DNA of 64,000 nt, from NCBI GenBank assembly GCA_035474135.1, contig DATINP010000033.1:2334-66333 (forward strand). The letters run 5' to 3'. Made by a program: the position numbers and the translations under genes. This DNA comes from Chloroflexia bacterium (GTDB lineage: Bacteria; Chloroflexota; Chloroflexia; QHBQ01; JADMIH01). Positions within the stretch are counted from its first letter, which is position 1. Each line of letters begins with the position of its first letter. The notes beneath the pieces are model-generated. The model had not been told where the DNA came from, did no database searches, and saw only the letters and a program-made list of their open reading frames with translations. Shown here piece after piece: positions 7,145 through 23,851 of this stretch.

Positions 7145-7523
7145 CACGAGGGAGAATAGGGGACTTCTAGGACACGTACGACCGCGCCCCGTCAAGCCCT
7201 GATAGGGGAATAAGCAAGTTCTCGACTGTTTCCGGTCAGACATTCCGGAGCATCTTGTAAGTGGCGAAACATTGTTCGCTTTGAATTCGTAATCATGTAT
7301 AATAGTCGCGACTTACAAACATAAAACCCAAATACGAAACGACCAAGGGATACGACACATGGCTAGGCAATGTCCGACCCAACCGTTCTCTGTTCGTGGC
7401 GAGCCGACGCTTAGAGTAGCCCACTCTAGTCAGGCTCCCACTCAAACACGCCCCGCTCTCCAGTCCACTGAACCAACTCGGCGCAATAGCAGCTCACAAC
7501 TGCCCGGTCCGCGCCTGTCCCCA

Positions 7524-8927: not shown

Positions 8928-8945
8928 CTTTACTATCCAACAACT

Positions 8946-9116
8946 ATGAATAACTCCACAGCCTACTCGCTTACCAGCCTGTTCTTGATTGGTGCTCCGG
9001 TGTTGCCTGCCACAGGCGAAGCCGCCAACCCGACTATATTCATCGTTATTCTCGTGATCGCCACCCTCGCGATCATCGCCGGTATTTTTCTGCTCCGCCG
9101 CAAACCCCCCATCTAA
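8946..9116 (+). CDS. 56-aa peptide: hydrophobic N-terminus followed by LPATG, a hydrophobic segment and RRKPP tail (sortase-sorting-signal-like)
   Basis: ATG..TAA ORF directly after the P450 gene; below the ORF-track size cut-off; translated by hand. Confidence 0.25.
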   Translation: MNNSTAYSLTSLFLIGAPVLPATGEAANPTIFIVILVIATLAIIAGIFLLRRKPPI

Positions 9117-9179
9117 CTAGCAACTGCCTCGTGGTAATCAATGTTATAATTGAGGGGATTAGCAAAATAAAGGAGCGAC

Positions 9180-9551
9180 ATGCAAGACGAAATGACAGAT
9201 AAGAAGCGAGCCAGATGGGTGCCCGTAGCCAATGCCACCACCATACCCTCAGGCCAATTCACCTGCGTATCAATTGAGGGCCAGGATATAGACATTTTCA
9301 ACATCGATGGCCAATACTACGCTATGGGTGATGTTTGCACGCACGCAGCCACTCCCCTCTCAGAAGGCGAGTTCTACGAAGACATGCGCGGCTGGGTAAT
9401 AGAGTGCCCCCTGCACGGCTCTCAGTTCGACGTCACTACCGGAGAAGCGGTCTCACTCCCCGCCACAGGTAACGCAGGCAAATACGAAGTGTGCGTAGAA
9501 GACGGCCAAGTACTTGTCAACCCCGATCCGGTCACGCCTTTCGGAGCGTAG
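9180..9551 (+). CDS. Rieske [2Fe-2S] domain ferredoxin
   Basis: CTH...17 residues...CPLHG Rieske ligand boxes (CxH-X15-17-CxxH); 123 aa; sits between the P450 gene and the convergent wbaP-like gene. Confidence 0.8.
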   Translation: MQDEMTDKKRARWVPVANATTIPSGQFTCVSIEGQDIDIFNIDGQYYAMGDVCTHAATPLSEGEFYEDMRGWVIECPLHGSQFDVTTGEAVSLPATGNAGKYEVCVEDGQVLVNPDPVTPFGA

Positions 9552-9603: not shown

Positions 9604-11181
9604 TCAGTAGGCCCCTTCACCTCGAACCCAGGTGGGAATCGTCTTTAGAATTATACGCACGTCCATGGCGGGCGACCAATTCTCAGCGTAGTAGAGATCG
9701 AGCTTCACCATATCCTCGAAGGATAGATCCGACCTGCCGCTCACCTGCCACAGTCCCGTAAGGCCAGGCGTCACGTCCAGCCGCTTAAGGTGCCAGTCGT
9801 CGTAGCGCTCTACCTCGTCGGGGGTAGGCGGGCGTGGCCCGACCAGGCTCATTTCGCCCTTCAGGATATTGAACAACTGGGGCAACTCGTCCAACGACGT
9901 GCGCCGGATAATCTTGCCAAAGGAAGTCCTGCGCGGATCGTCCCGTAACTTGAACACAGGCCCTTCACGCTCACTCTGATACATAAGTGCGGCTTTTCGC
10001 TCTTCGGCGTCCTCGTACATGGAGCGGAACTTGTAGCACACGAAGGGAGTACCGCCCTTGCCCACGCGCTTTTGCCTGAATAGCACCGGGCCGGGCGACG
10101 TTAGCCGCACAAATAGAGCAATCAACAGCATCGGTACGCACGCCACCACCAGCATCACCAAGGCCAGCGTCGTATCCATCATGCGCTTTACAAACAGGTT
10201 GAAGCCCCGCAAAGCTACATCTTTCACACCTATCAAGGGCACGCCGTTCAGTTCGTCGATGCGAACCTCGTTGAAACGCATCTCAAAGAGGTCAGGGACC
10301 AGCTTAAAGTCTACTCCGAACTCGCGACAGCTATCGATGATCTCCAGGATTTGCGTGTGATGCATTGCAGGGAGAGTCACTATCATTTCATGCAAGTCCT
10401 GGCTCTCCAGGATGCGTCGCACGTCATTGATACTACCTAGCTTGCGTAATTCTCCGTTTCGAGGTTTGATGGGCACTCGCCAGTCACGGCGAAGTGGGTC
10501 CGTCGGATCTGACACATAACCCGCCAACTGGTAACCCAACTCAGGCCGCTCTACTATATCCTTCATAATGCGCTGGCCCGCCAGTCCCGCGCCGACCACT
10601 ACGGTACGCCTGATATTGATCCCCCGCTGCCACAGCCACATACGCAGAGCGCGATAAGCCATGCGCTCCAGGATGAACACCACCAGGGTACAAGCGCCCA
10701 GGAAGATAAAGAGCATCCTGCTGGGCAGCACAGGGTTAAGCAGCAAAGCGCCCAACGTCAAAACAGCCACTCCTATAACAGACCCTATCGTGATAAGGCG
10801 CATATGGTCGAGCCACGACGCACCACGAGGCAGGGCATATAAGCCTCTAGCCTGGAAGGTCAGGAGAGTTATTCCCACAAAGGCCACGATGTACCAGGTA
10901 AATGCCGAAAGCGGGCGGAAAGATTCCGGCGCAACGTCACTTCCAAGCTCGGCGCCATATCGAAGCCAGTAAGCAAGCACAAATGCTGCCCCCAACAGGA
11001 GGCCATCGGCCAACAACCGTAGCGCGATAAGCGCATATCGTGTTCTTCGCGCTCTACGCATACGCTCCTCGCCGGTACCAACGAGCGTCAAGTGCCGCCC
11101 GCCTGCTAACGAAATTTTGTCTTCTGTCATTTTTGGGCCGGTATCCACGCCAGGAACCGGCTGGTATTCAGGAGCTTCCAA
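9604..11181 (-). CDS. polyprenyl-phosphate hexose-1-phosphate transferase (WbaP/PslA-like initiating sugar transferase)
   Basis: multi-TM N-terminus plus C-terminal bacterial sugar-transferase domain (MMDTTLALVMLVV...SPGPVLFRQKRVGKGG..F.CYKFRSM...LDELPQLFNILKGEMSLVGPRP). Confidence 0.85.
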   Translation of the reverse strand: MEAPEYQPVPGVDTGPKMTEDKISLAGGRHLTLVGTGEERMRRARRTRYALIALRLLADGLLLGAAFVLAYWLRYGAELGSDVAPESFRPLSAFTWYIVAFVGITLLTFQARGLYALPRGASWLDHMRLITIGSVIGVAVLTLGALLLNPVLPSRMLFIFLGACTLVVFILERMAYRALRMWLWQRGINIRRTVVVGAGLAGQRIMKDIVERPELGYQLAGYVSDPTDPLRRDWRVPIKPRNGELRKLGSINDVRRILESQDLHEMIVTLPAMHHTQILEIIDSCREFGVDFKLVPDLFEMRFNEVRIDELNGVPLIGVKDVALRGFNLFVKRMMDTTLALVMLVVACVPMLLIALFVRLTSPGPVLFRQKRVGKGGTPFVCYKFRSMYEDAEERKAALMYQSEREGPVFKLRDDPRRTSFGKIIRRTSLDELPQLFNILKGEMSLVGPRPPTPDEVERYDDWHLKRLDVTPGLTGLWQVSGRSDLSFEDMVKLDLYYAENWSPAMDVRIILKTIPTWVRGEGAY

Positions 11182-11314: not shown

Positions 11315-13594
11315 TTGCCCCATTTTAAATCTATGTGTATAATGTGGTTTAAGCAAAGATCGAGCCATCATAGGCGCCAAGCCCAATTCTTGCAAGGAAG
11401 CAAGTTTGGTGCCATTTTCTATGCTCCGCACTTTGCGTATGCCGGTATAGAGCCAGGAGGAACTAAATCGTTGTCAAAGCAGACCGCTTCCCGGAGCGGA
11501 TCGGGTAATCGTGGCGCGCGCCGCAAGGACACTCAGCCGGACGGAGTATCCCCAGCAGAACGCACCACAGAAGACATAAGTCAGGCAACCGGTGGTCACC
11601 CCACGGGCGGTGGCAAGCAGCACTCTACTTCTTCCTCATCCTCAACTCCTTTCCTGCAGAACTCCAACGGCTCAAATTCGAATCATGCCGCGATGTCGGC
11701 GGACGACCCGGCCCTATTGAGCGTGGGCGGTCTTCCTATTTCTCCCGTCTTACCTACCACAGCCGAATACATGCAGATGCGAACCTCGCGAAGGCGCAGG
11801 TGGTTGCGGTTCGGTATCTTTATAGTGTTGATCGCCCTGATCTCCGAGAGCATTTGGCTCTCACCCTTCAGCGACAGCGCGGCGAACGCGGTCCCTCGCC
11901 AGCCTGATCCTATCCCCCTCGCAGAAGTCCAACCGTATGGTGTGAACACTTTCCTCCACAAAGAGGTAGATAGCTGGAAGAAAGATAAAACCATGCAAAT
12001 GGCCAAGGACCTGGGCGTGGGGTGGATCAAGCAGCAGTTTCCCTGGGCCGAGATTCAATTCAGCCCAAGCTCTGATCCCAAGATTGGCTATTGGGATAAC
12101 AAGAACGGCCAGAGCGCCTGGACCAAGTACGACAATATCGTGAGCCTTGCCCAACAGTATGGCTTGCGAGTTGTAGCGCGTATTGATAGCGCGCCTCTCT
12201 GGTCACACCCCGGTAACCCCGACCCCAAGGCTCCGCCGGACGCCGCGCACATGGCCGATTTCGGCGACTTTGTCGGCACCTTCGTAAACCGCTACCGAGG
12301 CAGTATCGCCGCCATCCAGGTCTGGAACGAACCTAACCTCAAGGGCGAGTGGGCAACGGGCAATCCCGTCAATGCTGCTGAATACACAGACCTGCTCAAA
12401 GTAGCGTATACAGCCGCCAAAAACGTCAATCCCGATATCATAGTGCTGGCCGCACCCCTCGCCACAACCTTCGAGTCCCTTGGCTATGCCGGCAACTTGA
12501 ACGAACTGGACTACATGCAGGACATGTACGACGCAGGCGCAAAGCCCTACTTCGACGCTATGGCTGCCAATGCCTACGGCACCACATTCGCCCCCGAAGA
12601 CCCACCATCACCTGACAGACTGAACTTCCGCCGAGTCGAGCTTTTGCATGACATCATGGTCAAAAACGGTGACGCTAACAAAGCGGTCTGGTTCAACGAG
12701 TACGGCTGGAATAGCTCACCTGACGACATAACAAATGTGCCCTGGGGCCGCGTCACGACCGAACAACAGGGCGACTATACCGTGCGCGGCATCCAATACG
12801 CCCGCCAGAACTGGCCCTGGGCGGGAGTATTCACTATATGGTATCTGCGCCAGGTCGGAGATATTCCCCGCACCAACAGTGAATTCTATTTCGGCCTCGT
12901 TGATCCCGACTTCAGGACGAGCGTTGCTTACGACCGTATCCAGGCTGCAGCCACCGTCCTCGACAGCGTGGCCGGGCCAGGAGTGTGGGGTCCTCTCACG
13001 GCACCTGTCACATCTGACCCACGCTGGCGCATTCGACTGGGCGACGTCACAGGGGGCATGTATCTGGCGCCCTCGGCCCTCGATATTAGCCTGAGCGTAC
13101 CGTTCAAAGGGACAGACGTATCGGTGCAGCTGGTGCCCCTCCAGAGCGCGGGTGCGATCACCGCCACGCAAACCGTTGGTGCCCGCTATTATGTGACCAT
13201 AGACGGTTCGTCACGCTCCGTGATCTCTGACCTACCTCGCGACGCAAGCGGCAATGCTTATATAGACGTCCCCGCTGTGGGCGCACCTCTCAATCTCGTG
13301 GTTGCGAAAGGGATCAATGCTGAATTCCAGACCGGGCAGCACACCCTTGGGATAAGGGTCGCCGCCAACCCGGCCGGGGTACAGCCACCGCTTGGTGGCC
13401 GCACATATGCGCCCCTCGTGCAAAGCCCTAACCTGCCGGGCATTGGCCTAATCACGGTTGAAGCTCACCGCTCCTATATTCTATTCGCCCTCTTGACGCT
13501 GGCGCTTCTCCTGGCGGGTGCATATCTCGTCTGGCTATTACGTAAGCCGCCCCCACCCTTGCCTGGGCCTGATTCTGCGGCTCCCGGGCGCTGA
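11315..13594 (+). CDS. membrane-anchored clan GH-A (GH5/GH39-like, PslG-like) glycoside-hydrolase-domain protein; start uncertain (alternatives at 11693 and later)
   Basis: low-complexity N-terminus, one TM helix (FGIFIVLIALI), TIM-barrel hydrolase motifs IQVWNEPN (acid/base) and FNEYGW (nucleophile); second TM near the C-terminus; stop TGA overlaps the next ATG by 1 nt. Confidence 0.6.
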   Translation: MPHFKSMCIMWFKQRSSHHRRQAQFLQGSKFGAIFYAPHFAYAGIEPGGTKSLSKQTASRSGSGNRGARRKDTQPDGVSPAERTTEDISQATGGHPTGGGKQHSTSSSSSTPFLQNSNGSNSNHAAMSADDPALLSVGGLPISPVLPTTAEYMQMRTSRRRRWLRFGIFIVLIALISESIWLSPFSDSAANAVPRQPDPIPLAEVQPYGVNTFLHKEVDSWKKDKTMQMAKDLGVGWIKQQFPWAEIQFSPSSDPKIGYWDNKNGQSAWTKYDNIVSLAQQYGLRVVARIDSAPLWSHPGNPDPKAPPDAAHMADFGDFVGTFVNRYRGSIAAIQVWNEPNLKGEWATGNPVNAAEYTDLLKVAYTAAKNVNPDIIVLAAPLATTFESLGYAGNLNELDYMQDMYDAGAKPYFDAMAANAYGTTFAPEDPPSPDRLNFRRVELLHDIMVKNGDANKAVWFNEYGWNSSPDDITNVPWGRVTTEQQGDYTVRGIQYARQNWPWAGVFTIWYLRQVGDIPRTNSEFYFGLVDPDFRTSVAYDRIQAAATVLDSVAGPGVWGPLTAPVTSDPRWRIRLGDVTGGMYLAPSALDISLSVPFKGTDVSVQLVPLQSAGAITATQTVGARYYVTIDGSSRSVISDLPRDASGNAYIDVPAVGAPLNLVVAKGINAEFQTGQHTLGIRVAANPAGVQPPLGGRTYAPLVQSPNLPGIGLITVEAHRSYILFALLTLALLLAGAYLVWLLRKPPPPLPGPDSAAPGR

Positions 13595-16500
13595 TGCGTC
13601 TCGCTCGTCCTCTCGTCAATGATATTTCGGCCAACCCTATTGCCAGGGCCGTCCTTGCCTGCCTGCTGCTGGCCACCTGCGTGGGATCCCTCGTGGGTGT
13701 TTCGTACGTCGATAATTACGTAAACGCCGGGGTCGCCTGGGGCGGGCCTCCACCTGACATCCCCCTCGCTGACGTAGACCCCATGGGGGTGAATCTCTTC
13801 CTTGAGAAAGAGCCTGACCCCGCCAACGTGGTCAAATCGCTCGACATGGCGCAGGCGGGCGGCTTCAAATGGATCAGGCAAGACTTCGCCTGGAACGACA
13901 TCGAGATCAGCGCCAAGGGCAATTTCACTGACACCCGCAACCCCGGCAACCCCGTCAGTTCCTGGGCCAAGTACGACTTCATTGTGGACCAGGCAGTCGC
14001 CCACGGCATTACTATTATGGCCCGCCTCGATAGCCCGCCTGTGTGGGCGCGCAAGCCCGGCGACGACCTGGAGACCTACCACAAAGGCCCACCCGCCAAT
14101 AACAACGACTACGGAGACTTTGTGGCCGCCGTCGCTGCGCGCTACAAGGGCAAGATCAAGTACTACCAGATATGGAACGAGCCAAACCTGTTAGGCGAAT
14201 GGGGAGGCCACCCTGTCAACGCCGAACAATACGTGGCCCTGCTGAAGGTGGCACACGACCACATCAAGGCCGTTGACCCCGACGCCGTGATTGTGTCGGC
14301 GGCTCTCGCGCCCACCACCGAGGAGAGCGCGGCCAACCGCAGCGACATCCTGTTCCTCGAAGATATGTACCGCGAGGGAGCTAAGCCCTATTTTGACATT
14401 ATGTCAACTATGATCTATGGGCTGGGTCAGCCGCCGAGCGACCGCCGCACCGACTTCAAGCGGTTGTCTTTCTCGCGCCCTGTGCTCTTGCACGAGGTAA
14501 TGGAGCGTAACGGCGATGCTCTGAAGCCGATCTGGATCAGTGAGTACGCCTGGCTCAGCTACCCCGACGACCTGCAACAACGGCTCAATCTCTCGCCGGA
14601 CGAGTGGGCTGCGTTCCAGGCCAAGAACATCTGGGGCAAGAGCGTAGATGAGCAGACGCAAGGCCAGTATCTCGTAGAGGGCTACGAGCGCGCCCGCGAC
14701 GAATGGCCCTGGATGGGCGTGATGTTCGTGTGGCACCTGCGCAACCCCGACGGCGACCCTCTCGAACCGGCCACCTACTTCTCCATCCTCAACCAGGATT
14801 TCACCCCACGGCCCGCGTACCTCGCCCTCCAGGAATACAGCAAGGTGGTACCGTCAACGCCCACTCCTCAATCGAAGCCCCTGCTGAACGCGCTGGGCTT
14901 CCCCTTCCTGTACGCGCTGTTTGGCCTGTTGGCGCTGGCATCGTTCGCCTTCCTCGGCCTGTCGGTGGGCGAGTGGGCACGTGCAGCACTGAACCGACCG
15001 CGAGGCCGCTACAGCGAGCGCACGCGTGAGACCGCACGCAACGGCGCGGCAATCGTAGGCATGGGGGCATGCTACGCACTCTTCTACGTGGTGGGCAATC
15101 TGCCGGTGATAGTCGTCGCGCTGGCGGGCTACCTGGTAATAGCCTTCTTCAAGCCGCAGGCAGCGCTGGCCTTCGTCGCCTTCTCGATACCGTTCTTCTG
15201 GTATCCCAAAGTCTATGGAAGCCAGCACTTTCCCGTCGCCGAAACCCTCGTAGTGATGGCTTTCGCCGCGCTTATAGCCCGCCGCACAGTTGCGGCCTTA
15301 CTACCTCGCCTGTGGGCGCGCCTCGGGCAACCCGGCATGTCGCCAATAACATCACAAGCCGTCGTGGTCGACCTGCGCGCCACCAAGCCCATTCCCATCA
15401 ACGAACCAATTTCTGCGCCTGAGCAAGCTCCCGTCGCTGAGGCACCGGAAGCCGTCGACCTCAGCCCCGCCGAGTGGCCTGCACGTCCCAGGGAGTTGAT
15501 AGCCGAGCTTGCCAAACCGCTCCCTCTCAATGGGGAAAGAGAAGAGAGCAGGGCTGCCGCCCGACGCAGGAGGTCGGACGACGCGCTCCCACAGGCCAAT
15601 TACCTCGACCCACTCCTAGCACGCTTTCGAGCATGGAACAGGCAGGATGCGTTTGCCGCGCCTGCAGTTGCGCTTCTCCTGATCGGCGCGCTTTCCATGC
15701 TGACTCTCGCCAATCATGATTTCGCACCCGATAGCGCCCGTGCGTACCGTTGGATCGTAATCGAGCCGGTCCTCCTCTACTTCCTGCTGACCGACATAAT
15801 CCGTACGAAGCGCGGCCTGGTGCGCGTACTCGACTTCTTCGTGGGCGCAGGGGTGTTTGTGGCCTTTATCGGTTTGTGGCAGTTCGTAGGAGGCAGCAAC
15901 ACGCTGGCTGTAGAGGGCGTGAGCCGCGTCATGAGCGTCTACGAGCACCCCAACAATCTGGCTCTATACCTCGGTAGGGTGGCGCCATTCGCAGCCTGCA
16001 CAGCCCTTTTCCTACCCTGGGGGTGGCGCAAGCTGCTCTATGCGCTGGCCGCTCTCCCACTGTTCGCTACTTTCCTGCTCACTTACTCACGCGGCGCTTG
16101 GGTGGGCGCGGCAGTTGCTATCGTGCTGGCGGTGAGTATCGGCCTACGCTGGCCCCTCAGCAGAGAATCCGCAAAGCCCACTCGCGCCTTCCGCGCGTGG
16201 CTGACTGCGGTGGGCGTGGGCGCTGTGGCGGTCGCAATTGCGGTGGTCTTCTTATTCCCTAGCCTGCCCGACCGCTTCATCAACCCTGATAGCGGTGTGA
16301 AGCGGATCGACATCTGGGTCAGCGCCCTCAAGATGGGCCGGGACCACCCCTTCTTCGGCATCGGCCAGGACCAGTTCCTGAACCAGTACCAGCTAAAGAA
16401 CCTCGACGGCACCTACCACTACATCACGAAGGCCCAGGTCGCCGAGCTCTACACGTCTCACCCCCACAATATCGTGTTGGACTGGTGGCTCTCATTAGGT

Positions 16501-16788
16501 ATAATGGGTCTGCTCGTGCTTGTATGGCTCCTGTGGCGCTACTATCGGGAGGCCATAAACCTTGCGAGGTGGTGCGCGTCCAAGGCAGCCTCGGATGCGC
16601 TCCTGCGTGCGGTAGTAATTGGCCTGATCGCCGCCATGACCGACTTCCTGGTACACGGCCTGGTCGACAACTCGTACTTCCTGATGGACCTCGCACTGAT
16701 CTTCTGGCTGAGTTGCGGCGCTATACAGTTAGGTCGTATGCTTTATGTGGACGGGGGACGGCAGACGGCAGACGGCGGTAGGAATTGA
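13594..16788 (+). CDS. fusion protein: N-terminal clan GH-A hydrolase-like domain (paralog of the previous gene) plus C-terminal multi-TM O-antigen polymerase/ligase (Wzy_C-like) domain
   Basis: YQIWNEPN and WISEYAW catalytic-type motifs, then 10+ TM helices with LTYSRGAWVGAAVAIVL and RIDIWVSALKMGRDHPFFGIGQDQF (O-antigen-ligase family signatures); 1064 aa in one frame. Confidence 0.65.
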   Translation: MRLARPLVNDISANPIARAVLACLLLATCVGSLVGVSYVDNYVNAGVAWGGPPPDIPLADVDPMGVNLFLEKEPDPANVVKSLDMAQAGGFKWIRQDFAWNDIEISAKGNFTDTRNPGNPVSSWAKYDFIVDQAVAHGITIMARLDSPPVWARKPGDDLETYHKGPPANNNDYGDFVAAVAARYKGKIKYYQIWNEPNLLGEWGGHPVNAEQYVALLKVAHDHIKAVDPDAVIVSAALAPTTEESAANRSDILFLEDMYREGAKPYFDIMSTMIYGLGQPPSDRRTDFKRLSFSRPVLLHEVMERNGDALKPIWISEYAWLSYPDDLQQRLNLSPDEWAAFQAKNIWGKSVDEQTQGQYLVEGYERARDEWPWMGVMFVWHLRNPDGDPLEPATYFSILNQDFTPRPAYLALQEYSKVVPSTPTPQSKPLLNALGFPFLYALFGLLALASFAFLGLSVGEWARAALNRPRGRYSERTRETARNGAAIVGMGACYALFYVVGNLPVIVVALAGYLVIAFFKPQAALAFVAFSIPFFWYPKVYGSQHFPVAETLVVMAFAALIARRTVAALLPRLWARLGQPGMSPITSQAVVVDLRATKPIPINEPISAPEQAPVAEAPEAVDLSPAEWPARPRELIAELAKPLPLNGEREESRAAARRRRSDDALPQANYLDPLLARFRAWNRQDAFAAPAVALLLIGALSMLTLANHDFAPDSARAYRWIVIEPVLLYFLLTDIIRTKRGLVRVLDFFVGAGVFVAFIGLWQFVGGSNTLAVEGVSRVMSVYEHPNNLALYLGRVAPFAACTALFLPWGWRKLLYALAALPLFATFLLTYSRGAWVGAAVAIVLAVSIGLRWPLSRESAKPTRAFRAWLTAVGVGAVAVAIAVVFLFPSLPDRFINPDSGVKRIDIWVSALKMGRDHPFFGIGQDQFLNQYQLKNLDGTYHYITKAQVAELYTSHPHNIVLDWWLSLGIMGLLVLVWLLWRYYREAINLARWCASKAASDALLRAVVIGLIAAMTDFLVHGLVDNSYFLMDLALIFWLSCGAIQLGRMLYVDGGRQTADGGRN

Positions 16789-16959: not shown

Positions 16960-17922
16960 TTGCACATCGTAGTCACCGGCGGCGCGGGCTTCATCGGCTC
17001 TCATCTTTGCGAGGCCTTGCTTGCCCAGGGCCATTCCGTCACCGCTATTGACAACTTCCTGACAGGCAACCGCCGGAATATCGCCCATCTGCACGACAGT
17101 CCTCTCTTCCAACTGTTGGAGCACGACATAGTGCAGCCTCTCGACACGCCAGCGATCAATGCCCTGCCACCCGTGGACGCCGTGTTTCACCTCGCCAGCC
17201 CGGCATCACCCGCCGACTTCAGCCGCATCCCCCTCCAGATTGCCATCATCAATTCGCAGGGCACTCATAATGTGCTCGCTTTCGCGGTCAAGCACAGGGC
17301 ACGCTACCTGATCACATCCACATCAGAGGCATACGGTGAACCCGAAGTCCACCCACAGACCGAAGACTACAATGGCAACGTCAGCACTACCGGCCCGCGC
17401 GCCTGTTACGACGAGGGCAAGCGATTCGGCGAAGCTATAACCTCGGTCTACGTGCGCGAGCAGGAACTCGATGGGCGCATCGTGCGTATTTTCAACACCT
17501 ATGGTCCCCGCATGAACCCGCAGGATGGCCGCTCGGTCCCCAACTTCATAACCCAGGCTTTGCTCGGCAAACCGCTGACGATCTACGGCGACGGCAGTCA
17601 GACCCGCTCTTATTGCTACGTAAGCGACATGGTGGCCGGGTTGATCGCGGTAATGTTCGCCCCGCCCGAAACCAAAGGCATGATATTCAACGTGGGCAAC
17701 CCTGACGAGCGCACGATAAAGGACTTCGCCGAGACCATACGCGACCTCTGTGGTTCTGCCTCCACGATTGACTACCTTCCCGCCCTCCAGGACGACCCTT
17801 CCCGTCGCTGTCCCGACATCACACGCGTCACTAAGGCGCTCGGCTGGCAGCCCACTGTGCCCCTGGAGAAGGGTCTACCCGCCACGATTGAGTGGTTCCG
17901 CACACAGGTATGGCCCAACTAG
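16960..17922 (+). CDS. UDP-glucuronate decarboxylase (UDP-xylose synthase)-like NAD-dependent epimerase/dehydratase
   Basis: TTG start after AAAAGGGGG; GGAGFIGSHL Rossmann motif, YDEGKR catalytic YxxxK, high similarity to the UXS/ArnA-decarboxylase type along its length. Confidence 0.75.
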   Translation: MHIVVTGGAGFIGSHLCEALLAQGHSVTAIDNFLTGNRRNIAHLHDSPLFQLLEHDIVQPLDTPAINALPPVDAVFHLASPASPADFSRIPLQIAIINSQGTHNVLAFAVKHRARYLITSTSEAYGEPEVHPQTEDYNGNVSTTGPRACYDEGKRFGEAITSVYVREQELDGRIVRIFNTYGPRMNPQDGRSVPNFITQALLGKPLTIYGDGSQTRSYCYVSDMVAGLIAVMFAPPETKGMIFNVGNPDERTIKDFAETIRDLCGSASTIDYLPALQDDPSRRCPDITRVTKALGWQPTVPLEKGLPATIEWFRTQVWPN

Positions 17923-17945
17923 CGATCCGCAGGCCGCGCTTCTCC

Positions 17946-19415
17946 ATGCCGACCGCTACGGCCGGCCTGCCGCGTTGGGTATGGCCTCTGGGCATCGCGT
18001 TGGCGGCTCTAGCCGGCCTTGCACCTCCACTGGTGAGCCTGGGTGTACTGGTGGCCGGACTGGTTGTGTTCATCCTGCTCAAGAAGCCCTTGTGGGGAGC
18101 CTACGCCCTCGTGCTGAGCGTGCCCGTGCAGGATACTGTAAAACTGCCTGGCGGGATCAATGTCACGCAGGCGGCATTCGTGCTTGTGCTGGGCATCTGG
18201 TGGTTCTGGATGGCTCTGCGGAGCGACCGCCGCCTGCACATCACTCCCATCGGCGTGACTCTCCTGTTGTTCCTCACCTGCACCCTGCCCAGCCTGTGGG
18301 TGACCACCTCTCTACCTGACAGCCTCGCTGAGATCTCGCGCTGGATAGTGACGATCCTCTCCTACATCATCATCGTGAACTCGGTGCAGAGTCGACGCGA
18401 AGTAACGAGCCTTATTGTAGTAATGCTCACAGCGGGTATGTCCGAGGCTCTGCTAGGTCTTGTGCAGGCGTATGGCGGCCTCGGCCCGGCCAGTTTCAAC
18501 GTGGGCGGCCTGCTCACCCGAGCCTATGGAACGATCGGCGCGCCCAACTCGTTCGCGGGCTATATCAACATGAGCGTGCCTTTAGCATTCGCTCTCGCGG
18601 CCTACCACTGGGGCAAATGGGCCACCGCCCGCCGCGCCGCGCCATACCTTGACCGCCCCGACTTTATGTCATGGCAGCGTTTGCGCGTCCCGCTCCTCGT
18701 GTCCCTAGTGGCCTTTCTACTCTTCTGGACCGTGGTCACAAGCCTCTCGCGAGGAGCCTGGATCGGGCTGGCGTTTGGAGTGCTGGTGATGGTGTTGTCG
18801 CTCGGCCAGCGGGCCAAGGGCGCGATCACCGGACTGCTCGCTGCCCTGATCATACTCGCGGGCCTGACGGGGCTGAACGCGGTGCCACCCGTGATAGCGG
18901 ACCGCTTCACCCAGCTAACCAGCCAGTTGCAGATATTCGACCCGCGCGGCATCACCCCCAACCCCGACAACTACGCGCTAGTCGAGCGCATGGTGCACTG
19001 GATGGTGGCGGGCAACATGTTCCTCTCAAGCCCCATCGTGGGCGTAGGCATAGGCAACTTCAACACGCTGTTCAACAAGTTCGGCGTGCAGGGCTGGCCC
19101 TATTCTCGGGGCCATGCCCACAACTACTACCTAAATCTGCTTGCTGAAGTGGGCATCGTGGGCCTCACGGGCTACCTGATCATGATAATTACGACATTCG
19201 CGGTGGCCTACCGCGCCCTGCGCCGCGTGCGCGCACGCAAGGACCTGTATGGCGAAATGATAGTGATCGGTGCGCTGGGCGTGCTGGCCACCTTCGTCAC
19301 GCACAACTTCTTCGAGAACCTGCACGCCCTCAACATGGGCATCCAGTGGGGCGCGGCGCTTGCGCTATTCACTCTGGTGTGGCTCAGACCCGAACAGCCC
19401 GGGAAAGGAGCCTGA
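17946..19415 (+). CDS. O-antigen ligase/polymerase family membrane protein (second Wzy-like protein)
   Basis: about 12 TM helices; LSRGAWIGLAFGVLV and HWMVAGNMFLSSPIVGVGIGNF family motifs; ORF-track start 17892 would overlap UXS, internal ATG 17946 preferred. Confidence 0.65.
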   Translation: MPTATAGLPRWVWPLGIALAALAGLAPPLVSLGVLVAGLVVFILLKKPLWGAYALVLSVPVQDTVKLPGGINVTQAAFVLVLGIWWFWMALRSDRRLHITPIGVTLLLFLTCTLPSLWVTTSLPDSLAEISRWIVTILSYIIIVNSVQSRREVTSLIVVMLTAGMSEALLGLVQAYGGLGPASFNVGGLLTRAYGTIGAPNSFAGYINMSVPLAFALAAYHWGKWATARRAAPYLDRPDFMSWQRLRVPLLVSLVAFLLFWTVVTSLSRGAWIGLAFGVLVMVLSLGQRAKGAITGLLAALIILAGLTGLNAVPPVIADRFTQLTSQLQIFDPRGITPNPDNYALVERMVHWMVAGNMFLSSPIVGVGIGNFNTLFNKFGVQGWPYSRGHAHNYYLNLLAEVGIVGLTGYLIMIITTFAVAYRALRRVRARKDLYGEMIVIGALGVLATFVTHNFFENLHALNMGIQWGAALALFTLVWLRPEQPGKGA

Positions 19416-19416
19416 C

Positions 19417-20352
19417 TTGCGCTCACTCGTAACCGGCGCTGCCGGCTTTATCGGCTCCCATCTTTGCGAAACTCTGCTGGCGGCGGGACATGAGGTGGTG
19501 GGCCTCGACGCCTTCATCCCGTACTACCCGCGCGCGATCAAGGAAGCCAACCTGTCGGGCCCACGTGCCAATCCGCATTTCACTTTCTACGAACTTGACT
19601 TGCGAACCGGCGACCTGGCCCCTGCTCTTGAGGGTGTGGACGCCGTGTTCCACCTGGCGGCAATGGGTGGCCTGGTGCTTAGCTGGACGCACTTTGACCT
19701 CTACATGACCTGCAATATTCAGGCAACCGAGCGTCTGCTGGCGGCCATCCGGCAGACCGGGAAGGTGGACAAATTCATCTACGCCAGCACCTCCAGCATC
19801 TACGGCAGCGACGTGACAGGCCCCGAAACCGCCACACCCCACCCGGTGTCGCCTTATGGCATCACGAAGCTAGCGGGCGAGCATCTTGTGCAGGCTTACG
19901 ACCGCCAGTTCGGCGTCCCATCCACCATCCTGCGCTACTTCTCGGTGTACGGCCCGCGCCAGCGTCCCGACATGGGCTACTACATTTTCACGGACGCGAT
20001 CCTGCACGGCAAGCCGATTACAGTGTTCGGCGACGGCAACCAACTGCGCGGCAACACTTACGCCACCGACATAGCCCGCGCCACCCTCCTGGCCCACGAC
20101 AGGTTCGAGCGCGGCGCGATATACAACCTGGGCGGCTCGGAAGAAGTGAGCGCGAACCAGGTGATCGCCCTCCTGCAAGAGATCATCGGCAAGCGCACAG
20201 AGGTGCAATACGCCCCCGCCCGCCCCGGCGAGCAAAGCCGCACGCTGGCCGACACCACACTCGCCCAGCAACGCCTCGGCTTTGTGCCCCAGATGTCCCT
20301 GCGCTCGGGGTTGGAAGAGCAGGTGCGCTGGCAGACGGGTCTTAGCTCTTAG
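19417..20352 (+). CDS. NAD-dependent nucleotide-sugar epimerase/dehydratase
   Basis: TTG start 2 nt after the preceding stop; TGAAGFIGSHL Rossmann motif, YGITKLAGE (YxxxK); upstream part of the ORF-track ORF is the overlap with the previous gene. Confidence 0.8.
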   Translation: MRSLVTGAAGFIGSHLCETLLAAGHEVVGLDAFIPYYPRAIKEANLSGPRANPHFTFYELDLRTGDLAPALEGVDAVFHLAAMGGLVLSWTHFDLYMTCNIQATERLLAAIRQTGKVDKFIYASTSSIYGSDVTGPETATPHPVSPYGITKLAGEHLVQAYDRQFGVPSTILRYFSVYGPRQRPDMGYYIFTDAILHGKPITVFGDGNQLRGNTYATDIARATLLAHDRFERGAIYNLGGSEEVSANQVIALLQEIIGKRTEVQYAPARPGEQSRTLADTTLAQQRLGFVPQMSLRSGLEEQVRWQTGLSS

Positions 20353-21871
20353 ATCTACGACTCAGAATCGACCGGAAGGATGCAAGTTCCCCTGACGTGA
20401 ACGGACGCAGGAGGAGCAGCACCAGGCCGTATGCCAGTGCGAAGCCAATGCCTGCCCCCACGTAGAGCGCGAAGGCGGTGGTGTCTGACTTCCATTGCAC
20501 AAACAGCGACCAGCCCAGCCACATCAACGCGCCCGCAACCAGGCCCGCCACCAACGGCTTCCAGGCCAGCGCCACGACGGGCACAGGCCCGATAAAGCGT
20601 CCCACCCACACCAGGAACGGGCCGAGCAGCACCAGTTCGCTCAGCACCGTGGTCAGCGCGGCGCCGTTGATACCAATCAGCGGGATCAGCACCAGGTTCG
20701 CGATCACGTTGAAGGCGACCGTCAGCGCGAAAGCCCCCGTGATCAATCTCTGCTTGTCGAGCGCGATCAGCACGTACTGCGTGACCCCGTTCACAAAGCT
20801 AAAGGGTAGGAAGAAGATCAATATTTGCAGGGCGACAGGCGAGTCGGGCAGATAGATCTGCTTGCCCCCTGTCACTATCGTGATCAGCAGGGGCGCGAAC
20901 CACACGGTCATCACCACGATCAGCCCGGCAAGCACCAACAGCACCTTCAAAGCAAACCCGTACTCGTAGTTCAGGCGGGAGATATCGTCACGCGCGTGGC
21001 GGGCCATCCGTGGGAAGAGCGCCAGCGTCACTACGGGCGTGATCAGGAGCACAAAGTTGAGGTAGCTGTACGCCGCCTGGTACTTCTCCACGCCCAGGTC
21101 GCCCAGCACAGGCTGGATGATAAACTGGTCCACCCGAAAGAAAAGCCCCACCAACAGAGCGTTCAGCATCAGCGGCCAGCCCGTTTTCAGCAGGGCCACA
21201 GCCGCATCGCGACTTAGCCGCAGGCCTGCGACCGGCGCGCCCACCTCCGGGAAATCGCGCCGCAGGATACGTGCGAAATAGAGCGCGGTCGCAAGCGTGG
21301 ACAGCAACGAGGCCAGCGCCAACCCGATAATGCCCCACCCCAGCGCAAGCGCGCCCAGCCCCAACGCTACGTTCAGTACCGACGTGCCGATGCCCACCAG
21401 CGCGGGCACTGTCATGCGCTCGTAGGCGTTCAGCAAGGACGTAACCGTGCCGGAGAACGCGCCCGGCAGAAGGGACAGCGTGAGCACCACGACAGTCCAC
21501 GCTCCCGCCGTGCCCAGGTCGAACAGGCTAGTGTAAATCAGGATAAACAGACCCACAGGCACGAACAGCAAGAGGCTGATGAACAGACGCAAAGCCAGCG
21601 TCTGCCGGAAATCGTCCCGCACCGCCTCAGCCGACCCGCGCTCCTTGGCTACTTCGCGTGTTAGGAGTGTGCCAAGTCCCCACTCGGAGATCGTGCTTGT
21701 GTAAAGCAGAACGTAACCCGCCAGGAAGTAGGCCCCCAGTTCGCCGCCGCCGAGCGCGCGGTACAGCACCACCGCATACCCCAGCAGCAGCACCTTTGTG
21801 ACGATTTGTGCCATGAACGGGTTGAACGCATTTGACGCTACCCGCCGAGCCACTCCTACTTCGCTCTCCAT
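20342..21871 (-). CDS. polysaccharide biosynthesis protein / Wzx-type flippase (MOP superfamily)
   Basis: about 14 TM helices, length and hydropathy typical of Wzx/MurJ-like exporters; start ATG 21871 (TTG 21874 alternative). Confidence 0.7.
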   Translation of the reverse strand: MESEVGVARRVASNAFNPFMAQIVTKVLLLGYAVVLYRALGGGELGAYFLAGYVLLYTSTISEWGLGTLLTREVAKERGSAEAVRDDFRQTLALRLFISLLLFVPVGLFILIYTSLFDLGTAGAWTVVVLTLSLLPGAFSGTVTSLLNAYERMTVPALVGIGTSVLNVALGLGALALGWGIIGLALASLLSTLATALYFARILRRDFPEVGAPVAGLRLSRDAAVALLKTGWPLMLNALLVGLFFRVDQFIIQPVLGDLGVEKYQAAYSYLNFVLLITPVVTLALFPRMARHARDDISRLNYEYGFALKVLLVLAGLIVVMTVWFAPLLITIVTGGKQIYLPDSPVALQILIFFLPFSFVNGVTQYVLIALDKQRLITGAFALTVAFNVIANLVLIPLIGINGAALTTVLSELVLLGPFLVWVGRFIGPVPVVALAWKPLVAGLVAGALMWLGWSLFVQWKSDTTAFALYVGAGIGFALAYGLVLLLLRPFTSGELASFRSILSRRSKS

Positions 21872-21887
21872 CAAAACCTCTTTGTTT

Positions 21888-22612: not shown

Positions 22613-22665
22613 GGACGACGCTTGACTTACGATCTAAGATCTACGACTCGTTTTACGACCGACGA
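22613..22665. repeat. intercistronic tandem-oligomer element C: GACGACG, (GATCTAA/GATCTAC)x3, CGACTCG/CGACCGA
   Basis: same 7-mer families as element B; overlaps the last codons of the GT4 gene (tail RKTSRRS). Confidence 0.7.
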
Positions 22666-23851
22666 ATCTCTCGTACACTTGCAGCACCTGTTCCGCAGCT
22701 GTCTCCCATGTAAACCGAGCGGCTCTTGCCCGACCCGCATCGCTCAGGGCGCGCCGCAGGTCTGCATCACCAAGCAAGCGTGAAATGCCGCCCGCGATAC
22801 TCTCTACCGAGCGCGCATCCACCACGAGAGCCGCTTCCCCCACTACCTCAGCCAGCGCATCATCCTCGGACACGAGTACGGGCGTGCCGCACGACATCGC
22901 CTCGGCGACCGGCAGGCCGAAGCCTTCGTAGAGGCTGGGGTAAGCGAACACCTCGGCCATCCTGTAAAGCAACGGCAGGTCGCGTTCGTCCACGTAGTCC
23001 ACGAACACCACGCGCGCTCCTGTGCTCGCACTCTCGCTGTTCACCCGCGTACCCGCCGCCAGTATAGGCTCGTACAACCAGCCCTTGCGTCCTGCCAGCA
23101 CCAGCGCGACTTTCTCATCGCCCGTCATGGCGCTGACAGCCTGCGCGTAGCCCTCAATCAGCCGAACCAGGTTCTTGCGCGGCTCAAGAGTACCGACATG
23201 CAGCACAAACCTCTCAGGCAGACCGAGTTCCTGCCGCAAGCGAGCACTTTGCGCTTGCTCGTCCACAATCTCTCCGCGCCCCGCTGCCCTGAACCGCTCG
23301 TCTACTCCATTATGCACTACGGTTACTTTCTCCGGGGCGACGCCCATCAAGCGCACAAGGTCACGCTTCGTCTGCTCTGACACGGCGATGATCCCGTCTG
23401 CCCGGCGTACTGCCCCGGGCACAGTCTTGCTCAGGAACCCTGCAAGGCCCGGCTCGGCGCACTCCGGTACGACCAGAAACGACAGGTCATGCACAGTAAT
23501 TATATCGGCACCGGTACGGTGAGGCGGCGACACGAAATCAGGCGAATGGAGCAGATCGCAGCGACCGGTGAACAGGTCTACAGGGATAGGCAGCCGCAGC
23601 CGTTGCCACACCGCAAACATCTGGCGTACCGAAAGCGGCACAGCCACTCCCCTGAAGTTGGGGTGCGCCTTCATAAGTGCCCGCGCTTGCTGCTCCTCAG
23701 GCGTGCCGCGCGGCAGACCTCTGTTCGCGTAAAAGAGAGAGTAGCGATTGTCAGCGTCGAGCCGCGCCAGCGCCGCCACCAGTGACCGCGTATAGCGGGC
23801 CACCCCCGCGCCGGGATATATGCCGGTTGTATAGTCCAGAGCAATATGCAT
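22634..23851 (-). CDS. glycosyltransferase family 4 (GT-B fold, group 1)
   Basis: EGFGLPVAEAMSCGTPVLVSE EX7E motif and GT4 architecture; 405 aa. Confidence 0.85.
   Translation of the reverse strand: MHIALDYTTGIYPGAGVARYTRSLVAALARLDADNRYSLFYANRGLPRGTPEEQQARALMKAHPNFRGVAVPLSVRQMFAVWQRLRLPIPVDLFTGRCDLLHSPDFVSPPHRTGADIITVHDLSFLVVPECAEPGLAGFLSKTVPGAVRRADGIIAVSEQTKRDLVRLMGVAPEKVTVVHNGVDERFRAAGRGEIVDEQAQSARLRQELGLPERFVLHVGTLEPRKNLVRLIEGYAQAVSAMTGDEKVALVLAGRKGWLYEPILAAGTRVNSESASTGARVVFVDYVDERDLPLLYRMAEVFAYPSLYEGFGLPVAEAMSCGTPVLVSEDDALAEVVGEAALVVDARSVESIAGGISRLLGDADLRRALSDAGRARAARFTWETAAEQVLQVYERFVGRKTSRRS

Follow-up and report, generated by a model that had tools for sequence, protein, structure and literature searches.

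The DNA analysed here, a 64,000-nucleotide window of a Chloroflexia genome, encodes a 1064-aa protein (ORF2, 13594..16788; forward strand, as are all features below unless stated) in which a PslG-like glycoside hydrolase (GH) runs without an internal stop into a WaaL/Wzy-type membrane transferase (Wzy_C). We consider it somewhat probable that ORF2 is a bifunctional envelope enzyme of a Wzx/Wzy-type pathway that couples chain building with trimming or release, its transferase leaning towards a polymerase. If this is true, the fusion physically joins the making and the trimming of a cell-surface sugar polymer. ORF2 exists as given in a preliminary description of this DNA, and its sequence is the same as that of P0001, a database protein that carries the annotation ‘MAG TPA: O-antigen ligase family protein [Chloroflexia bacterium]’. 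Every motif quoted in that description is likewise present, namely WNEPN (residue 194), WISEYAW (314), TYSRGAW (830), and GIGQDQF (922) in ORF2, and WNEPN (285) and FNEYGW (408) in the preceding gene, ORF1.

ORF2 opens with a signal-anchor helix (TM1, aa 15-44, 13636..13725; helix 15-44 in the single-chain AF2 model, which has a pLDDT of 89.6 and a pTM of 0.78), whose N-terminus is placed inside the cell by hydropathy and the positive-inside rule, with three Arg in the 18 residues ahead of TM1 and an Arg-rich loop past TM2. Next is a PslG-like hydrolase domain with a (beta/alpha)8 fold, probably extracytoplasmic (aa 55-420, 13756..14853). Based on the same rule and the same model, this domain and the transferase are predicted to lie on the same, outward face of the membrane. 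That both ORFs encode PslG-like hydrolases of clan GH-A, as previously proposed, is borne out by comparison with the PDB, where PslG is the best or near-best match by sequence and the best by fold. Pfam gives marginal GH matches, at 23.8 and 22.6 bits where the cutoff is 23.5 (the former being the Cellulase match of ORF1), and the Pfam GH39 model matches neither GH domain. The two domains are indeed paralogs, with 41% identity over 384 aa (E 1e-77), well above what chance would give. The Glu of the NEP motif (Glu196 of WNEPN, 14179..14181), just past strand beta-4, aligns with the acid/base Glu165 of PslG (chain index 139), while the second Glu put forward as catalytic, the nucleophile Glu317 of WISEYAW (14542..14544), falls within strand beta-7 (residues 313-319) of the barrel in the model. 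Both catalytic positions are invariant in 71 fused and 53 standalone homologs, and from its sequence the GH domain of ORF2 looks active and PslG-like.

The hydrolase is connected to the transferase by a second helix (TM2, aa 430-466) and an accessory helix bundle (aa 475-569), together spanning 14881..15300 and delimited by hydropathy, the model, homolog alignment, split forms, and an HMM. TM2 is the counterpart of the C-terminal anchor of standalone GHs, and the bundle, which carries a conserved PK...FPxxE motif and an invariant Glu550, corresponds to the N-terminal module of unfused relatives (the module HMM matches 66 of them there). A disordered Arg/Lys-rich loop follows (aa 586-665, 15349..15588; pLDDT below 50), which ranges from 4 to 208 aa in homologs and is probably cytoplasmic; the wider loop 571-686 contains 16 Lys and Arg.

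The transferase domain itself (aa 671-1061, 15604..16776), of the GT-C fold and acting on Und-PP-linked glycans in its family, scores well above the Pfam Wzy_C cutoff. In the alignment with WaaL, Arg833 of TYSRGAW (16090..16092) is equivalent to Arg191, Arg904 (16303..16305) to Arg265, and His958 of SHPHN (16465..16467) to His313. The last two are invariant (71/71 homologs each), and the first is Arg in 58 and Lys in 13 of the 71. In WaaL, Arg191 and Arg265 each bind a phosphate of Und-PP, and His313 is the proposed acceptor-activating base (PMC10920833). With this full catalytic set, the domain looks, as far as sequence can tell, active and WaaL-like. The preliminary description had called it a polymerase: its O-antigen polymerase/ligase motifs are there, but these data do not favour polymerase over ligase, because the best solved match is an O-antigen ligase and a nearby second Wzy_C protein (ORF3) has the same motifs and might just as well be the polymerase. 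NCBIfam ligase and oligosaccharyltransferase models all fall far below their cutoffs (RfaL 21 bits, cutoff 277; TfpM weak).

The fusion is genuine, as shown by the unbroken frame and by its conservation in dozens of independent assemblies. Over 100 clusters of proteins, drawn from independent assemblies of Chloroflexota, have the same architecture; most of the 120 best clusters listed are of this type, about 1000-1200 aa long, and 35-81% identical. Full-length matches come from Chloroflexia, Chloroflexus, Oscillochloris, Chloroploca, Roseiflexaceae, Herpetosiphonaceae, Thermomicrobiales, Anaerolineae, Dehalococcoidales, and Chlorohelix. Loss of a stop or a shift of frame through faulty assembly or sequencing, joining what were a GH gene and a separate Wzy-like gene, might be invoked, and the preliminary description named such an error as a refutation; the source is a metagenome-assembled genome, the two parts lie in different frames at some related MAG loci, and one of these (L011) resembles a frameshift, with a GH-frame tail that reads as out-of-frame sequence. 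We nevertheless regard such an error as having a negligible chance here: besides the recurrence of the unbroken architecture, the junction (TM2 and the next helices) is modelled at a pLDDT above 90, and split forms end cleanly in a TM anchor and an Arg-rich tail, followed by a gene with its own start, unlike what a one-base error would leave.

In three such split forms (L022, L025, and L074) the gene directly upstream of the Wzy-like gene encodes a GH of the ORF2 type that ends in a TM anchor, and in a fourth (L067) the two genes are 1.1 kb apart; in the tree, the GHs of these forms group within the fused-GH clade. The split forms point to a functional link between hydrolase and transferase. 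Among the 150 nearest 50%-identity representatives of the membrane module, about 50 carry the GH domain and 66 are unfused, at least one of these having no GH gene upstream, which suggests that the GH is dispensable to the membrane module in many lineages. Conversely, GHs of both the ORF1 and the ORF2 type are commonly standalone, double-anchored proteins without a Wzy-like neighbour, including many of the ORF2 type; therefore, coupling is frequent and not obligatory. The fused proteins, named ‘O-antigen ligase family protein’ or ‘PslG’ in databases, are thus widespread rather than rare, and our literature search for a GH-Wzy_C fusion found no paper describing this architecture, in agreement with the preliminary description.

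ORF1 overlaps ORF2 by a single base, its stop and the ORF2 start sharing TGATG at 13592..13596, and not by the four-base ATGA given previously; the one-base overlap recurs, from gene coordinates, in a 68%-identical relative (L001). The open reading frame reported for ORF1 (11315-13594) exists, 11315 being just its longest possible start. The true start is likely the TTG at 11471, preceded by GGAGG, giving a protein of 707 aa (11471..13594), a length in line with its orthologs (701-711 aa), which span about 98-100% of this form; residues are counted on it here. Its AF2 model (pLDDT 83, pTM 0.79) comprises a disordered N-tail (aa 1-84), a TM helix (aa 97-130), a TIM barrel (about aa 145-500), a beta-sandwich (aa 504-664), and a C-terminal TM helix (aa 670-691). 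The membrane anchoring previously proposed is therefore borne out by hydropathy and the model, with anchors at both ends. PslG is the top Foldseek match of the model (E 1.5e-22, 511 columns), and phmmer against the PDB retrieves the GH39 enzyme 5jvk (4.7e-7) and PslG (8.5e-6). The putative acid/base is Glu287 of WNEPN (12329..12331, codon verified), and the putative nucleophile is Glu410 of FNEYGW (12698..12700), which lies in strand 405-413 of the model and in a motif aligned with TEIGW of 5jvk; each is invariant in 53/53 homologs. In the divergent intergenic region, a promoter-like site (TTGCCC-17-TATAAT, 11315..11343, a consensus match alone) coincides with the start previously given for ORF1; with five such sites against 3.0 +/- 1.7 in shuffles, it is weakly supported as a promoter.

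The surrounding genes form a polysaccharide locus of the Wzx/Wzy type. Divergent from ORF1 lies an initiating polyprenyl-phosphate hexose-1-phosphate transferase of the WbaP/WcaJ/PslA kind (9604..11181, reverse strand; Pfam Bac_transf 1.6e-67 plus CoA_binding_3; NCBIfam TIGR03025 EPS_sugtrans 430 bits, cutoff 296), which keeps this position in L001, L004, and L005. Directly downstream of the fusion is an NAD-dependent sugar-nucleotide epimerase/dehydratase of the extended SDR type (16960..17922; Pfam Epimerase 5e-50), for which no NCBIfam model reaches its cutoff; an SDR adjoins the fusion in at least 15 loci. ORF3 follows (17892..19415; Pfam Wzy_C 2.3e-18), a standalone protein 23% identical to the membrane domain of ORF2 (E 9e-11) and sharing its SRGAW, R...W, and HxHN motifs. 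It is kept beside the fusion across classes, and likewise beside one unfused relative, and may be its partner, as polymerase or as ligase. Further along are a second SDR epimerase/dehydratase (19270..20352; Pfam Epimerase 9.3e-57), kept in L001, L014, L017, and L018, a Wzx-type flippase of the MOP superfamily (20342..21874, reverse strand; Pfam Polysacc_synt 9.7e-21), kept in L001, and a GT4 glycosyltransferase (22634..23851, reverse strand; Pfam Glycos_transf_1 1.3e-29), which many loci have close to the fusion. The scanned ORFs of the window did not include a PslE/PslD-like co-polymerase or exporter. At least 15 loci from different classes keep the order standalone GH, GH-Wzy_C fusion, SDR, second Wzy_C. 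The fused gene of Chloroflexaceae, Roseiflexaceae, and Herpetosiphonaceae is solitary amid housekeeping genes.

We propose that this pathway makes a conserved cell-surface glycan. The WbaP-type transferase would initiate the repeat unit on polyprenyl phosphate, and GT4 and other glycosyltransferases, fed by the two SDR enzymes, would finish it. The WaaL/Wzy-type domain of ORF2 would bind the Und-PP-linked glycan, with the pyrophosphate held by Arg833 and Arg904 and the acceptor hydroxyl activated by His958, and would transfer it with inversion to give a beta linkage. Judging from the families, such WaaL-type inversion (alpha-linked Und-PP donor, beta product) would be compatible with PslG, a retaining beta-endoglycosidase. 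The preferred acceptor may be the lipid-linked repeat that follows, in which case ORF2 would be the polymerase and the other Und-PP-dependent step, the attachment to an anchor, would fall to ORF3. The retaining beta-glycanase domain, predicted to sit at the outer face between TM1 and TM2 beside the transferase, would cut the chain in the grip of the latter, so as to cap chain length, free the chain from its lipid carrier, or both. It is thus reasonable to infer that chain extension is coupled to trimming or release in ORF2, as a hard-wired version of the role proposed for membrane-associated PslG in the Psl system. There, optimal synthesis depends on membrane-associated PslG and on its catalytic Glu residues, and the role suggested for PslG was to cleave the polymer ‘at certain length’ (PMC6813494); its cleavage site lies between repeat units, which is the bond made by the polymerase (PMC13434223). 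ORF1 would represent the older paralog, free-standing, anchored at both ends and retaining the beta-sandwich, and may further process the same polymer.

Alternatively, ORF2 may be a WaaL/PglL-like ligase or O-oligosaccharyltransferase, and ORF3 the Wzy polymerase, a reading that we hold possible, if short of probable. A finished Und-PP-linked glycan would then be moved to a conserved acceptor (glycolipid, wall glycan, or protein), and the fused GH would trim glycan or acceptor before or after ligation, or undo a wrong ligation. The complete Arg/Arg/His set and the weak RfaL and TfpM matches agree with this, but these motifs cannot separate the two activities, because inverting polymerases of the same CAZy clan share conserved Args, some of them aligned to the ligase Args, and keep a residue aligned with the ligase His (PMC10920833); moreover, the NCBIfam matches are far under their cutoffs. 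The second Wzy_C gene is on hand as a polymerase, yet has the same motifs as ORF2. The family is unusually conserved across one phylum, and the fused gene is often placed outside glycan clusters, as is more usual for ligases and oligosaccharyltransferases than for a Wzy polymerase. Monoderm bacteria, too, have GT121 ligase-like proteins, of unassigned function (PMC10920833), although the classical acceptor would be absent in Chloroflexota because the LPS pathway is reported missing (PMC13319060).

It is also conceivable that the GH acts on an unrelated beta-linked glycan (for example, a polysaccharide from the environment, an old sheath, or a wall polymer), with the fusion serving for anchoring or co-expression only. 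This would fit the many standalone double-anchored GHs of both types and the many nutritional glycanases of clan GH-A, and sequence cannot predict a GH substrate. We judge it improbable, given that the nearest relative in structure and sequence is the biosynthesis-associated PslG and not a nutritional xylanase or cellulase, that a GH beside a Wzy-like gene recurs across classes in fused, split, and tandem forms, that an enzyme with both ends anchored is confined to the membrane surface and badly placed for foraging, and that Pfam scans of the window ORFs found no sugar-uptake genes in the cluster.

The preferred reading, a polymerase-leaning enzyme that also trims or releases its chain, has one of its closest known parallels in PslG of P. 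aeruginosa (CAZy GH39; PDB 4ZN2, 5BX9, and 9G17). The likeness extends to the TIM barrel, the NEP acid/base Glu, the beta-7 nucleophile Glu, the N-terminal membrane anchor, a locus of the Wzx/Wzy type whose initiating enzyme is WbaP/PslA-like and, in ORF1, the C-terminal beta-sandwich. However, identity is just 16-23%, and PslG, which works with a separate Wzy polymerase (PslJ), is itself free-standing and has a single anchor, whereas ORF1 has two anchors and the GH of ORF2 is covalently tied to the transferase. In the current Psl model, a PslE octamer shields PslJ from PslG (PMC13434223), while in ORF2 the hydrolase is tethered to the transferase; for the host phylum, Chloroflexota, neither an outer membrane nor LPS is reported to be present (PMC13319060).

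The transferase half resembles the WaaL O-antigen ligase of Cupriavidus metallidurans (PDB 7TPG and 7TPJ; CAZy GT121; Pfam Wzy_C) in its catalytic residues (R/K833, R904, and H958), which lie on a long outer loop near the C-terminus. It differs in the added N-terminal hydrolase and the extra bundle of about four helices, in that the lipid A-core acceptor should be missing, and in that ORF2 may be a polymerase. Hydrolases and lyases encoded together with synthesis machinery offer a further comparison: BcsZ, AlgL, PelA, PgaB, PssZ, and WssD belong mostly to synthase-dependent systems, and to our knowledge none is fused to a polymerising or ligating membrane enzyme. They are found in other exopolysaccharide operons, where normal production often depends on them (PMC6813494). 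A CAZy survey of these transferase families mentions a single bimodular enzyme of the Wzy_C/O-ligase type, the O-antigen ligase WadA of Brucella and Mesorhizobium (GT25 plus GT121; PMC10920833). There too, a globular carbohydrate-active domain is appended to a membrane transferase, which is taken to imply coupled action, but the added domain is a sugar-adding glycosyltransferase and not a sugar-cutting hydrolase, and WadA is reported from five genera, in a different phylum, whereas the ORF2-type fusion is phylum-wide.

The window has two adjoining reading frames on the forward strand: ORF1, a standalone PslG-like glycoside hydrolase (GH) whose longest frame spans 11315-13594 (+), and ORF2, a GH-Wzy_C fusion that follows directly at 13594-16788 (+). 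All motifs quoted for them in the preliminary description are present, WNEPN and FNEYGW in ORF1, and WNEPN, WISEYAW, TYSRGAW and GIGQDQF in ORF2. The junction reads TGATG (13592-13596), as was also described; however, this is not the four-base ATGA overlap that had been claimed at the same time, since the ORF1 stop and the ORF2 start share one base only, as they also do in a relative with 68% identity. Similarly, 11315 is only the longest possible start of ORF1, and a GGAGG followed by TTG at 11471 would give a protein of 707 aa. ORF1 orthologues have 701-711 aa and align nearly end to end with this shorter form, and given this agreement in length we favour the start at TTG 11471. A promoter-like TTGCCC-17-TATAAT coincides with 11315, which is weak evidence, and in the promoter and terminator scan, whose site counts did not clearly exceed those of shuffles, there is weak support only for the ORF1 start. 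The proposed tandem paralogy holds: across 384 residues, ORF1 and ORF2 share 41% identity in their hydrolase domains (E 1e-77), which at the level of sequence makes their paralogy certain.

Both hydrolase domains are related to PslG. In sequence searches against the PDB, the top match of ORF2 is PslG (3.9e-9), followed by GH39 xylosidases, and those of ORF1 are a GH39 enzyme and then PslG; moreover, a profile built from 71 fused homologues matches PslG at 2.8e-17. AlphaFold2 gave confident models of ORF2 (pLDDT 89.6, pTM 0.78) and ORF1 (pLDDT 83.1, pTM 0.79), in which the catalytic domain is the (beta/alpha)8 TIM barrel of clan GH-A, and PslG is the top structural neighbour of both in Foldseek (5.5e-14 for ORF2, 1.5e-22 for ORF1). 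In Pfam, Cellulase/GH5 is matched only marginally (23.8 and 22.6 bits against a cutoff of 23.5), and GH10 below threshold. Glyco_hydro_39 (PF01229) does not match ORF1 or ORF2 at E <= 0.01, and a few homologues have precomputed matches to PF01229 or PF02449. Because identity to PslG is ~16-23% and no Pfam GH39 match was obtained, we classify the two domains from their sequences as PslG-like hydrolases of clan GH-A, and not as members of GH39.

The glutamate of the NEP motif had been read as the acid/base, and HMMER indeed aligns WNEPN of ORF2 with WNEPN of PslG, whose Glu165 has this role (PMC11912335). In the models, the putative acid/base follows a strand (E196 after strand 190-193 in ORF2, E287 after strand 279-284 in ORF1), and the putative nucleophile lies within one (E317 in strand 313-319 of ORF2, E410 in strand 405-413 of ORF1). 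This second Glu falls in the seventh barrel strand in both cases, which is the clan GH-A arrangement, and FNEYGW of ORF1 aligns with VTEIGW of the GH39 enzyme 5jvk. Its identification as the putative counterpart of PslG Glu276 rests on its position in the modelled barrel. Both Glu are invariant in the fused (71/71) and standalone (53/53) homologues. From the Glu165 alignment, the beta-7 Glu of the models and this invariance, the hydrolase domains of ORF1 and ORF2 look catalytically competent by prediction.

The two proteins differ in what surrounds the barrel. In the model, ORF1 consists of a disordered N-terminal tail of 84 residues, a TM helix, the barrel, a beta-sandwich with strands across aa 504-664 (the Foldseek alignment with PslG covers 511 columns), and a further, C-terminal TM helix; such anchoring of a hydrolase by both ends is in itself unusual. 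ORF2 is without the beta-sandwich, and only ~30 aa separate its barrel from the next helix, TM2. An extra 80-140 aa are present at this position in 41 of the 71 fused homologues, consistent with a retained beta-sandwich. The tail of ORF1 (aa 1-84; 11471-11722, +) is cytoplasmic, rich in Ser, Gly and Thr, and modelled with pLDDT < 50; it is kept in relatives, orthologues of similar length aligning through it. In many Thermomicrobiales, Anaerolineae and other Chloroflexota, PslG-like GHs also exist as standalone proteins, in which the barrel and beta-sandwich are flanked by an N-terminal and a C-terminal TM helix. The loci concerned (L006, L007, L010, L012, L013, L015, L029, L034 and L041) showed no adjacent Wzy-like gene.

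Beyond its barrel, ORF2 continues, according to topology analysis and the model, with TM2 (aa 430-466), a conserved accessory helix bundle (aa 475-569; 15016-15300, +) that carries a PFFxxPK...FPxxE motif and in which Glu550 is invariant, an Arg/Lys-rich disordered loop of variable length (4 to 208 residues across the family), and a WaaL-like domain (aa 671-1061) of ~11 to 12 helices in the model. This domain has a WaaL-type fold and matches Wzy_C (PF04932) at aa 819-977 with 81.5 bits against a cutoff of 31.7. In CmWaaL, Arg191 and Arg265 each bind an Und-PP phosphate, and His313 is the proposed acceptor-activating base (PMC10920833). By profile alignment, they correspond to ORF2 Arg833 (R in 58 and K in 13 of 71 homologues), Arg904 and His958 (both 71/71). 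As this Arg/Arg/His set is aligned and conserved, ORF2 is predicted to include a WaaL/Wzy_C-type inverting transferase that is competent to act on Und-PP-glycans. By the positive-inside rule, both the N-terminus and the loop that follows TM2 would be cytoplasmic, so that the hydrolase domain would be extracellular, on the side of the membrane where the WaaL-type catalytic loop lies. The accessory bundle lies outside the 12-helix WaaL fold and forms the N-terminal module of 66 unfused relatives.

Four lines of evidence show that the GH-Wzy_C fusion reported from the sequence is real: a database protein, a genome scan, a cluster search and the existence of split pairs. ORF2 has an exact counterpart in the database, a protein from a Chloroflexia MAG, and the 120 best clusters listed consist mostly of proteins of ~1000-1200 aa with this architecture, their identity falling to ~35%. 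Other genomes were searched for the fusion, as the preliminary description had proposed, with each species represented by one genome; this gave 593 relatives, and full-length matches are present in Chloroflexia, Chloroflexus, Oscillochloris, Chloroploca, Roseiflexaceae, Herpetosiphonaceae, Thermomicrobiales, Anaerolineae, Dehalococcoidales and Chlorohelix. When the membrane module alone was used as query against 1.84 billion cluster representatives, 299 matches were obtained at E <= 1e-30; among the best 150, a GH domain is present in ~50, and 66, with lengths of 430-550 aa, are unfused and have the accessory bundle at their very start. Finally, the two halves are neighbouring genes in several lineages: three loci (L022, L025 and L074) encode a split pair, i.e. 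a GH with a TM anchor and an Arg-rich tail, then a Wzy-like gene with its own start, and in L067 the split genes are 1.1 kb apart. A sequencing artefact as the source of the fusion is rejected, the same architecture being found in many assemblies.

In a neighbour-joining tree of the GH domain, the split-form GHs are nested in the clade of fused GHs, and the ORF1-type GHs form a clade of their own. The duplication behind the two GH types is therefore old. Fusion and fission have both happened, a classical signature of functionally linked partners. The coupling is frequent and not obligatory, since many relatives of the membrane module are without a GH and many ORF2-type GHs are without a Wzy-like neighbour. 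Five fused homologues (P0076, P0078, P0079, P0090 and P0091, the last two from Anaerolineae) fall outside both main GH clades, and three of them (P0078, P0079 and P0090) have precomputed matches to Glyco_hydro_42 (PF02449); this suggests a more divergent, or possibly swapped, GH domain in some fusions. In a Chloroflexia MAG (L011, 9472-13153), an ORF2-type GH frame ends in Arg/Pro/Gly/Trp-rich sequence that looks out of frame and stops just ahead of the opening of a Wzy-like frame. Unlike the three clean splits, this break probably reflects a frameshift, either from faulty assembly or in a pseudogene.

The genomic context is that of a Wzx/Wzy-type cluster, extending from a WbaP/WcaJ-like initiating transferase (PHPT; 9604-11181, -), which exceeds the curated EPS_sugtrans cutoff, to a GT4 glycosyltransferase and a flippase-like membrane protein. 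ORF1 and ORF2 are followed by an SDR sugar-nucleotide enzyme (16960-17922, +), a second, standalone Wzy_C protein that we call ORF3 (17892-19415, +) and a second SDR enzyme (19270-20352, +), and the remainder includes a Wzx-type flippase and a small conserved protein ahead of the GT4. These pathway partners (PHPT, Wzx, GT4 and the two SDR enzymes) accompany the fusion in the window and in close relatives, and the order GH, GH-Wzy_C, SDR, Wzy_C is found in at least 15 loci of various classes. A second Wzy_C gene is also present directly 3' of the closest unfused relative. By contrast, the fused gene of Chloroflexaceae, Roseiflexaceae and Herpetosiphonaceae is surrounded by housekeeping genes and has no pathway partners next to it. 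Among the ORFs scanned in the window, neither a co-polymerase nor an outer-membrane exporter was found. The label 'UDP-xylose synthase' for the SDR neighbour was dropped, all NCBIfam models being far under cutoff.

Which bond the membrane domain of ORF2 makes is less straightforward, as it is not the sole candidate polymerase of the locus: ORF3 carries the same motifs and is conserved alongside. By sequence, ORF3 has no meaningful match in the PDB. ORF2 could be the polymerase of a polymerase-hydrolase, in line with the preliminary description, or it could be a ligase or oligosaccharyltransferase with ORF3 acting as the polymerase. The best solved match of the ORF2 membrane domain is a ligase, and the isolated position of the fused gene in some families is a ligase-like placement; the motifs of ORF2 and ORF3 are shared. 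We lean only slightly towards the polymerase-hydrolase, on the PslG precedent and on the simple answer that it would offer to chain length and release where no co-polymerase was found.

Other functional labels are rejected. A literal O-antigen ligase, transferring to lipid A-core, does not fit a phylum from which the LPS pathway is reported to be absent (PMC13319060), so the database name 'O-antigen ligase' is a family label and not a function; the NCBIfam RfaL equivalog scores 21.3 bits with ORF2 against a cutoff of 277. An IctB-type 'bicarbonate transporter' is rejected on its score (NCBIfam, 93 bits against a cutoff of 366). Moreover, the 'O-antigen ligase' label hides a two-enzyme architecture.

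In the mechanism that we propose, the transferase domain of ORF2 would take a flipped Und-PP-linked glycan and make a beta linkage to an acceptor, and TM1 and TM2 would keep the tethered beta-glycanase, a retaining enzyme, at the surface of the membrane, where it would cut the chain being handled, thereby limiting its length and/or releasing it. This agrees with the Psl literature, as membrane-associated PslG and its catalytic Glu residues are required for optimal Psl production, PslG being proposed to cut the polymer at a certain length (PMC6813494), and as it cuts between repeat units, i.e. at the bond formed by the polymerase (PMC13434223). From family knowledge, the stereochemistry would be compatible: the bond made by an inverting transferase from an alpha-linked donor would be beta, and enzymes of the PslG type are retaining beta-endoglycosidases. 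A stronger version, which we regard as unlikely, is that the tethered hydrolase stands in for a Wzz/Wzc-type co-polymerase as the chain-length and release device of the Wzx/Wzy pathway: kept a constant distance away from the active site of the polymerase, it would cut the growing Und-PP-linked chain, free a polysaccharide of defined length, and leave a lipid-linked stub for re-extension. If true, this would account for the release of a Wzy-made polymer from its lipid carrier in a bacterium without outer-membrane export machinery, and the existence of fused and split forms would amount to a natural experiment on hydrolase-transferase coupling.

Two questions are unsettled in Wzx/Wzy synthesis: why a locus that makes a polysaccharide also encodes an enzyme that breaks it down, and by what means the length of a completed chain is measured and the chain detached from its lipid carrier. 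For Pseudomonas, the evidence that places membrane-bound PslG within the synthesis machinery is indirect (PMC6813494), and the latest structural model keeps the polymerase shielded from PslG (PMC13434223). The phylum-wide covalent tether of a PslG-like hydrolase to a WaaL/Wzy-type transferase argues that proximity of the two activities has been selected. Having both on a single polypeptide makes their coupling accessible to point mutations, and the split and GH-less forms found in nature provide comparisons. A CAZy survey of these transferase families mentions a single bimodular member, WadA (GT25 + GT121) (PMC10920833), and we found no description of a GH-Wzy_C or GH-ligase fusion in the full-text literature searched, which is not proof of absence. 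The components were already known, as was the concept of a hydrolase associated with biosynthesis; the covalent architecture, its phylum-wide conservation and the coexistence of split and fused forms are new. In Chloroflexota, a phylum with a cell envelope that is still under debate, the fusion also marks a surface-glycan pathway that is conserved and uncharacterised.

Several other genes of the window deserve mention. The small protein between the Wzx flippase and the GT4 has 171 aa (22021-22536, -), a C-terminal TM helix and no Pfam or NCBIfam match; the 68%-identical relative (L001) has a 172-aa gene at the same position, and the protein appears to be an uncharacterised but conserved component of the cluster. 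At 7359-9551, upstream of the initiating transferase, lie a cytochrome P450 (7359-8927) and a Rieske protein (9180-9551), and the synteny of P450, Rieske and transferase is also present in L001. Three large ORFs have no Pfam match at E <= 1e-5: 44580-46586 (+, 668 aa), 54787-57081 (-, 764 aa) and 61386-63647 (-, 753 aa). Finally, an ORF at 37042-38046 (+) has a weak SLH domain match (E 9e-6, 26 bits against a cutoff of 20.8). SLH domains of other monoderm bacteria bind secondary cell-wall polymers, and this ORF could hint at the use of the glycan.
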